Of a DNA stretch of 5,142 bases, positions 2,941 to 4,561 are shown one piece after another (the first letter of the stretch is position 1; each line of letters opens with the position of its first letter). The position numbers were made by a program, and so were the translations under genes. The notes below the pieces were generated by a model, which worked only from the letters and a program-made list of their open reading frames with translations, searched no databases and was not told the origin of the DNA. Source of the DNA: Candidatus Wukongarchaeum yapensis (GTDB lineage Archaea > Asgardarchaeota > Wukongarchaeia > Wukongarchaeales > Wukongarchaeaceae); the NCBI GenBank assembly GCA_016840425.1, contig JAEOSI010000169.1, forward strand, positions 1-5,142, in the 5' to 3' direction.

Positions 2941-4038
2941 CGGAAACTGTTTTTTATTTATCTTCATGCCGCAAGAAGACCTCTTCCACAAGGGGGGAGA
3001 TGAATTGCGACCAATGTATATTAGGGGTGCTTAAATATGAATCTTAGGCAAATATTTTTGGGTGAAAATGAGGCTTACAACCGTGCTAAAGCTCTGTTCG
3101 CATAAAGAAGAGCTAAAACAGATGAGCAAGGTTGTAACAGTCCTCTACAACTTAGCCAACTATGAGCGACGTAAAGCTTGGAGGGAAACGGGGAAGATCC
3201 CTAACTACTACCAGCAGTACCACGCTTTGAGGGACCACGAACTGGCAAGGCTTTTGCCTTCTCACACCGTGCAGCAAACCCTGAAAACTTTAGAACACAA
3301 CTACTGAAGCTGGTATGGTCTAAGGAAGAAGGGGGACAAGACAGCAAGACCTCCAGGCTTCAGAAAAACAAAACATCCTTCAACCTTCCGCTTCACCAAC
3401 TGCCACTTCAAAATCATAGGCGACAACACGATAAGGCTCACCACGAAGAACCTCCTCGGAGAGAACATAGAAGTAAAGGTTAAAGGCAACCCGAAAACAC
3501 CTATAAGCAAAATAGAGAAACCTCAGACCCTCACAATAGTCTTCAAAAACGGGGAAAAAATAACCACCGCAAACCTAACTTACAAGATCCCAGACCCAGA
3601 AGAAGAGGAGAATGGCAAAATAATGGGGATAGACTTGGGGATAAAGAACATAACAACAACCTACGACACAGCCGACGGAGAGGTTAGAATATATAAGGGC
3701 GGTAAAATCCTCTCAACCCAGCACCATTTCAACAAGCAAATCCAGAAGCTTCAGAAGAAACTGCCAGGAAAAGAGGACGGAAAAACCCAGCAATACAGCA
3801 AAAACATAACCAAACTTCACAAGAAAAAAGCGAGGCAGATAAAACACCAGCTCCACTGCATAGCCAAAGACATAGTGAAAACCTGCGAAAAAAAGGACAT
3901 AAAGACTGTAGTGGTAGGCGATCTCAAAAACATAAGAAAAAAGAGCAACGGGAAAGGAAAAAAACCTAGGAAGGAAAACAAACCAAAAGCTCCACTCATG
4001 GAGCTATTGGACGCTGACCTCGCTCTTAGAGTACAAAC

Positions 4039-4161
4039 TCAGAAGAGTAGGCATTGCAGTGAACTACTCCCAGCTTTTGCAGGGGGCTTCCTGTTTCAAC
4101 GACGGGATCATCATTATTCATCCATCTCCACAGGCGTAAATTCGGACAGTCCCTGTCCTAC
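4039..4161 (-). ncRNA. Predicted TnpB omegaRNA (reRNA) of the mini-element: scaffold about 4161-4059 plus guide about 4058-4039
   Basis: Perfect hairpin GGACAG-GGA-CTGTCC (4144-4158), a CCTGT/ACAGG stem, a terminal right-end hairpin, and GAATT (4143-4139) able to pair with the terminal AGTTC. It reads VGQGLSEFTPVEM, resembling the C-terminal tail of TnpB proteins that overlaps the omegaRNA. The 5' boundary is approximate. Confidence 0.7.
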
Positions 4162-4257
4162 TCTTCTATATTGTTATTCTTAGGACTATAAATAATTTAT
4201 TATTATTGTGCGACTTTCATCCCTCAGCTTTCGCAAGGGGACTTCTCGCCGAAGAAG
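4059..4257 (-). mobile_element. Nested 199-bp non-autonomous IS200/IS605 mini-element (left end + omegaRNA/right end, no ORF)
   Basis: On the minus strand it follows the target TTTAA (4262-4258), starts CTTCTTCGGCGAGAAGTCCCCTTGCGAAAGCTGAGGGATGAA and ends GAAGCCCCCTGCAAAAGCTGGGAGTAGTTCAC, the same end architecture as the outer element. Removing exactly 4059-4257 restores the tnpB frame (GGC ATT GCA|TTA AAG AAG GTC GGC GAA). Confidence 0.9.
4185..4192 (-). promoter_or_regulatory. Putative archaeal TATA box for the mini-element omegaRNA
   Basis: TTTATAGT on the minus strand, preceded by an A/T-rich stretch and ending about 23 nt upstream of the scaffold start near 4161, a spacing consistent with an archaeal promoter. 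Confidence 0.45.
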
Positions 4258-4419
4258 TTAAAGAAGGTCGGCGAAAAATACACCAGCAGGGCGTGTCATG
4301 CCTGCGGTGATAGGAAGAAGAAAAACCGCGCAAAAAGAGGAAGTTTTAAGTGCAGCGAATGCGGTTACAAAAACCACCCCGATGTGATCGGGGCTATAAA
4401 TATCCTTAAAACGTATCAG

Positions 4420-4561
4420 TATGGAGCGTTGGAAAACGTTCCTAACTGTAATCCCCGCGTGAACTCGGGCAACGTGGTCAAATGGGACGAATCTCATTTG
4501 ACATGTACGGAAGCCCCGTCCGCAAGGGCGGGGTAGTTCACTTGAGTTTTACTCCGACTGC
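4420..4561 (+). ncRNA. Predicted omegaRNA of the outer element: scaffold to 4541 plus guide about 4542-4561
   Basis: Stems GGAGCGTT/AACGTTCC (4423-4442), CCCG/CGGG (4454-4469), GTCAAATGGGA/TCTCATTTGAC (4477-4502) and the right-end hairpin (4514-4533). The loop GTGAACT (4459-4465) is perfectly complementary to the terminal AGTTCAC (4535-4541), i.e. a pseudoknot. The 5' boundary is approximate. Confidence 0.72.

Follow-up and report, generated by a model that had tools for sequence, protein, structure and literature searches.

The atpF gene of an Asgard archaeon ends on transposon DNA. In the stretch of 5,142 nucleotides analyzed here (the window), a tnpB-only element of the IS200/IS605 family lies in the last codon of the gene for subunit F of the A/V-type ATP synthase and supplies from its own right end the final base of that codon and the stop codon, a silent swap that leaves the protein intact. 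The same kind of landing recurs, with 9 of 15 independent right-end junctions of the element's subfamily falling on antisense stop codons. The window is one contig (C177) of a 2.16-Mb MAG (277 contigs, 38% G+C), and close relatives of its AtpF carry the label Candidatus Hodarchaeota (Asgard archaeon). Features and coordinates are listed in Table 1.

Table 1. Features of the window at and around the insertion in atpF.
Feature	Coordinates	Strand	Evidence
tnpB-only IS200/IS605-family element (IS1341 type), 1580 bp	2962..4541	+	Pfam; copy comparison
Target motif (TAM) TTTAT, outside the element	2957..2961	+	Precedes 7/7 left ends; kept in empty sites
Left end with weak subterminal hairpin	2962..3030	+	Conserved among copies; fold z -0.3
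tnpB pseudogene	3062..4536	+	tblastn with intact 424-aa sister TnpB; Pfam OrfB_IS605 and Cas12f1-like TNB
Nested gene-less mini-element (PATE-like) of a sister family, 199 bp	4059..4257	-	Lies 3' of TTTAA; ends GTAGTTCAC
Right-end subterminal hairpin, stem 8-9 bp	4514..4533	+	8 nt ahead of the element end
Right-end cleavage motif TTCAC, inside the element	4537..4541	+	9/9 subfamily and 48/50 superfamily copies; complement G-TGA-A supplies the new stop
Predicted omegaRNA guide portion, antisense to the last atpF codons	4542..4557	+	Known TnpB/omegaRNA layout
atpF, A/V-type ATP synthase subunit F, 104 aa	4538..4852	-	PF01990 ATP-synt_F, E 9.8e-24
Spacer from the original atpF stop to the next same-strand gene (GTPase, 2133-2753)	2754..2956		Gene order same in the empty allele L049

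The AtpF match covers positions 1-90 of the 91 in the PF01990 profile and is the sole match to that profile in the genome, i.e. the gene is single copy. All members of the AtpF cluster (15/15) end in ...GVKLK, and in the alignment distant homologues share this end point or run 1-2 residues past it. The plus strand at 4531-4550 is GGGTAGTTCACTTGAGTTTT, read on the minus strand as ...AAA CTC AAG TGA AC, with the last codon AAG at 4543-4541 and the stop TGA at 4540-4538; the stop and the final G of AAG (4541), which appear as TCAC on the plus strand (4538-4541), are element DNA. A preliminary description of this DNA had attributed the G and the TGA of the ending CTC AAG TGA to the right end of the IS, and the sequence as read here agrees exactly; its join of 2961 to 4542, giving ...CTC AAA TAA on the minus strand, was reproduced.

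Upstream, the only neighbors of atpF are pyrI and a small stalk-like subunit (L048 2965-3930), for which ATP-synt_B was the only match above cut-off (30.1 bits, Pfam cut-off 28), V-ATPase G remaining below its own cut-off. Unrelated genes follow downstream (L048), and atpF stands apart from any large ATP synthase operon. The element occupies the end of the atpF-GTPase spacer that is most distant from the start of the GTPase gene. That GTPase gene is paired with a gene for OapB (PF09846, origin-associated protein) on the minus strand (1753-2753), a pairing which suggests that a replication origin may be near. At 1682-1701, within a spacer, a 10-nt unit (TTTGAAACCG) occurs twice in tandem.

The element belongs to a known family (IS200/IS605, IS1341 group) and is ordinary for it. 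PF01385 and PF07282 were found on the window TnpB fragments and on the intact 424-aa TnpB of a sister genome (G001), which is encoded there by two copies (L060, 383-1657; L062, 1506-2780), and sequence matches in the PDB were to TnpB and Cas12f. The window tnpB is dead: tblastn revealed three lesions, namely an in-frame TGA (3305-3307), a frameshift near 3939-3988 and the 199-bp insertion (4059-4257). Intact copies of the element in the sister genome measure 1379-1387 bp, versus 1580 bp in the window, and the nested mini-element, whose family has more than 30 copies in the genome, is missing from the sister-genome copy and from the copy on C61. Internally deleted derivatives of the element (355-470 bp) are present on C97, C246, C144, and C115. 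In the three TnpB copies read (window 3899-3916, L060 and L062) the position of the RuvC-II catalytic glutamate is a glycine (VVVGDL), in agreement with a rearranged-catalytic-site class of TnpB that has glycine at this position and for which another glutamate is proposed to compensate (PMC10691335).

There is no tnpA within the element; one intact Y1 TnpA gene (PF01797) is found on contig C70 of the genome, and C117 has a fragment. The element around the C70 gene has a left end similar, by eye, to that of the window element, which makes the C70 TnpA a likely helper in trans. The element has no terminal inverted repeats, and its TTCAC differs from the target motif TTTAT at two positions. A right-end signature, GGAAGC-hairpin-GTAGTTCAC, occurs in 55 of 400 Asgard genomes in many families, with at most 100 occurrences in any one genome (reversed control pattern, 0-1 per genome); across these 55 genomes the sequence of the hairpin stem varies and the flanking GGAAGC and GTAGTTCAC are constant. 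An Rfam search of the window returned chance-level matches only.

Within the genome TTTAT precedes 7/7 left ends, and AGTTCAC ends 9/9 right ends, where similarity breaks off. Because conservation alone cannot assign the last T of the one and the last C of the other to flank or element, empty sites were sought. Three insertions in G001 have clean empty sites in the window genome (C133, C118, and C173), where (T/A)TTAT is followed directly by the right flank, and three insertions in the window genome (in the genes for aIF2-alpha, FEN1, and a cation-efflux protein) have empty sites in G001, again with the motif followed by the right flank. Target duplication is zero in all six filled/empty pairs. 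The element therefore begins at the base following TTTAT, the C of TTCAC is its final base, and insertion leaves no duplication; these are the boundaries originally drawn from the window alone. The empty FEN1 allele in G001 reads CTTAT. At two further sites occupied in G001, the window genome lacks a clean empty site and has additional bases between the flanks, 4 (CTAT) at C116:2867-2870 and 66 at C276:1579-1644, which could be footprints of excision or repair, or else indels unrelated to the element.

The atpF locus was compared in three close metagenome loci and in G001, which belongs to the same genus (flanks approximately 91% identical at the DNA level). In two metagenome contigs the stretch in common with the window is 99.9-100% identical. 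G001 carries the element at both atpF-side junctions and has no empty atpF allele, so the insertion is very probably older than the split of the two species. One G001 contig (C92; L032/L058) has the atpF-side copy joined leftward to DNA homologous to C86 of the window genome, and the GTPase-side flank with the left end lies on a separate contig (C42; L037); the foreign left flank on C92 is due either to an assembly chimera or to two element copies having recombined. The four full-length copies are about equally diverged (85-87.5% identity), which makes a comparison of young with old copies impossible.

The only empty atpF allele found is L049, from a more distant metagenome relative that is a different species (AtpF 91% identical, flanks 81-87% DNA identity). 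Its minus strand reads ...CTC AAG TAA ATA AAA, so that the motif there is TTTAC, not TTTAT. The empty allele predicted in the preliminary description is borne out in gene order and stop position but not in the last codon, which had been expected to be AAA and is AAG in L049, one synonymous base away. Since the sole empty allele has TTTAC, AAA as the codon before insertion is something we infer. L049 also gave rise to a reading with shifted boundaries, in which the element spans 2961-4540 between TTTA and CTTGAG, AAG is native and only the stop has been replaced; the TTTAC-TTGAG of L049 is exactly what this predicts. The six other pairs, however, assign the T of TTTAT to the flank and the C of TTCAC to the element, the aIF2-alpha pair reading TTTAT-TCCC when empty and TTCAC-TCTC when filled, and in L049, with the flank divergence of another species, the difference is a synonymous third-position transition. 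The shifted boundaries were therefore rejected and we regard them as very improbable. With the boundaries fixed by the six pairs, the AAG of L049 is best read as a synonymous difference between species rather than a boundary error. Around 4150-4160 L049 lacks the target motif and has one mismatch in the would-be guide, so this allele would be expected to hinder re-insertion or TnpB homing.

Recurrence was scored by a junction test, in which a long antisense ORF had to terminate precisely at the junction, as NN|G TGA in register 1 or as TA|G in register 2. In the window genome 4/9 subfamily junctions are on a stop codon (atpF, FEN1, and aIF2-alpha in register 1; the cation-efflux gene in register 2), and G001 contributes 5/6 new junctions (a D-aminoacyl-tRNA deacylase, a 4Fe-4S protein, DUF711, a TrmB-like regulator, and one more). 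Wider samples, pooled across subfamilies, gave 11/48 (23%) for superfamily copies with the same right-end motif in the window genome, where five further copies lie inside reading frames, and 14/118 (12%) in 17 other Asgard genomes. All eight named stop-site genes have clear Pfam matches and are mostly housekeeping genes. Wherever a stop-site copy has an empty counterpart, the latter carries TAA in the register expected, with the protein the same or nearly so: GAA TAA becomes GAG TGA in aIF2-alpha, GGA TAA becomes GGG TGA in DUF711, TA|A becomes TA|G in the cation-efflux gene, and TAA becomes TGA in FEN1.

These empty/filled pairs and the 9/15 recurrence uphold the earlier claim that the TTTAT/TTCAC pair allows landing on A-TAA-A stops without protein change. 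That the atpF insertion is a one-off coincidence with no general rule is already refuted by the eight further independent cases in the subfamily, along with those in the superfamily and in the other Asgard genomes, and we give it practically no credence. The D-aminoacyl-tRNA deacylase gene ends in a TGA two codons earlier in the window genome (C173, approximately 3215-3230) than in the sister, where the element is on the stop (L060 1662-1680). In the TTTAA-type mini-element family, two left-end matches (C160:802 and C160:2054) abut the 3' end of a gene running in the same direction; if the motif at the C160 sites is TTTAA, its last three bases would be the gene's TAA and this family could land silently in either orientation.

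Enrichment was measured against gene calls from a crude home-made caller based on ORFs and codon usage (2093 genes, 78% coding, 61% TAA stops). The genome has 14,446 TTTAT sites, and 318 overlap an antisense stop, a share of 2.2% overall and of 6.1% among non-coding sites. The 9/15 observed is far above both, as the preliminary description had expected for all TTTAT sites, with P 4e-8 against the non-coding null (P 4e-7 when the index case is dropped). The junctions tested are few and come from two fragmented MAGs of related organisms, and the index case was already known when the test was run. There are 263 genes (13%) that end in A-TAA-A, compared with approximately 15 antisense motifs at each other offset, a 17-fold spike. 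Many of the other copies are close to a gene 3' end (within 40 nt), in either orientation. A bias towards convergent insertion had been suspected from right-end flanks and was discarded, as left-end flanks show co-directional copies 15-35 nt past gene ends.

A stricter null treats the 40 nt past a gene end as harmless and, for the antisense orientation, predicts a stop share of 36%; the subfamily (9/11, P 0.002) and the superfamily (11/19, P 0.04) both exceed it. Since this null still leaves enrichment, selection together with motif frequency may not be the whole story. The elements may instead seek stops, either through a preference beyond the 5-nt motif or because TTTAT/TTCAC has been selected as a mimic of TAA/TGA, which would be a true safe-harbor strategy. 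Besides the residual 9/11, this is favored by a right flank that begins with T in 11/15 copies and by the motifs of IS608, TTAC and TCAA, which by our own reading complement to G-TAA and T-TGA in one register. The excess vanishes when the harmless zone is narrowed, however, the expected stop share rising to 48% for a zone of 20 nt and to 62% for one of 10 nt; superfamily and phylum-wide shares reach only the 23% and 12% given above; and target choice in IS200/IS605 is established to rest on 4-5 nt read by a guide in the left end. The target of ISDra2, TTGAT, has no stop in its complement, so the in-register stop property is not family-wide. On balance we think active or evolved stop seeking unlikely, and somewhat more doubtful still is its narrower form, in which the motif pair of this lineage (TTTAT/TTCAC, perhaps also TTAC/TCAA of IS608) was selected as a TAA/TGA mimic, possibly with a preference for gene ends. 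If it were true, transposons would colonize compact genomes by parking on the stops of essential genes, where deletion of the element would also be risky for the host.

The enrichment against genome-wide nulls is real and is largely explained by the frequency of the motif at stops and the loss of harmful insertions; extra targeting may add to this but is not needed. The safe-harbor effect described earlier as built in is retained as an effect of the sequences, an evolved adaptation being considered unlikely; most of the enrichment comes from the 17-fold motif spike and survival of harmless insertions near gene ends.

The account that we consider probable is that a now dead tnpB-only copy was inserted long ago by single-strand 'peel and paste', 3' of TTTAT on the strand opposite atpF, presumably mobilized in trans by a Y1 transposase. 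The complement of TTTAT, A-TAA-A, would have contained the third base of the last Lys codon and the TAA stop of atpF, and the element end TTCAC, with complement G-TGA-A, would have provided the new G and a TGA stop; because A-TAA-A is replaced by G-TGA-A, AAA TAA would become AAG TGA with an identical protein. In the standard code a change from NNA to NNG is synonymous in 14/16 codon boxes, the exceptions being ATA to ATG and TGA to TGG, and a second register, one base along, converts TA|A to TA|G. As approximately 13% of genes end in A-TAA-A, stops carry the motif about 17 times as often as any neighboring position does, and because landings there would cost nothing, stop-codon copies would survive purifying selection and accumulate, which makes selection the likely main cause of the enrichment. 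The stop swap itself would follow incidentally from the sequences of target and element end. What was observed is where the element begins and ends, that the swap is silent and recurs, and the age of the copy, as judged from its presence in both species.

The swap gives a transposon a sequence-level route into the coding end of essential genes at zero protein cost, and silent stop landing may help to explain how TnpB elements persist and spread in gene-dense archaeal genomes. For annotation of these genomes it provides a rule, since a gene-end TGA followed by ACTAC... marks an element boundary. At stop-site copies the predicted omegaRNA guide would be antisense to the last codons of the host gene, and such copies offer a clean natural test of selection versus targeting in insertion-site choice.

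Among known systems the closest likeness is to IS608 of Helicobacter pylori (PMC3201880), which also inserts 3' of a short fixed motif left outside the element, has its right cleavage motif inside the element a few bases past a subterminal hairpin, and has neither inverted repeats nor target duplication; the in-register complements of its two motifs, noted above, are a further likeness. IS608 has tnpA and tnpB, whereas the window element has tnpB only; its motifs are 4 nt rather than 5 nt; and the base before the stop would change from G to T, often non-synonymously, rather than from A to G. No report of stop-codon landings by IS608 was found in the literature searched. TnpB/omegaRNA elements such as ISDra2 and ISGst2 (PMC8612924) share the OrfB_IS605 and zinc-ribbon architecture of TnpB, a guide RNA expected to run from the right end into the flank, and a TAM that is the transposon target motif; the window TnpB differs in its glycine at the RuvC-II glutamate position, and the window copy is a pseudogene. 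IStrons (IS605/IS607 with a group I intron; bioRxiv 10.1101/2023.11.20.567912, PMC4227781) belong to the same superfamily and also leave the host gene unharmed, but they are silent through RNA splicing, whereas the window element is silent through the DNA sequence of target and end, and at stop codons only.

Haloquadratum has PATEs and core-deleted derivatives of IS605 that are short and gene-less, and small elements occur nested inside IS605-type ones (PMC3119063). The gene-less copies found here, of 355-470 bp and in the nested case 199 bp, are similar in retaining the two ends; that paper reports no stop-codon association. The papers searched contained nothing relevant on stop-codon rebuilding by IS200/IS605 elements or on its high frequency. 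Gene-less derivatives and nested insertions are already known (PMC3119063), and the stop-codon swap and its frequency are apparently undescribed.

A broader parallel is found outside this family. Integrating phages and genomic islands rebuild the 3' end of the gene that they target, as in tRNA genes and in icd for phage 21 and e14, and in both cases the insertion is at a gene 3' end and the mobile element supplies the replacement. Phages and islands do so with site-specific recombinases and long attachment sites at a single locus, whereas the window element needs a 5-nt motif and has hundreds of possible sites.
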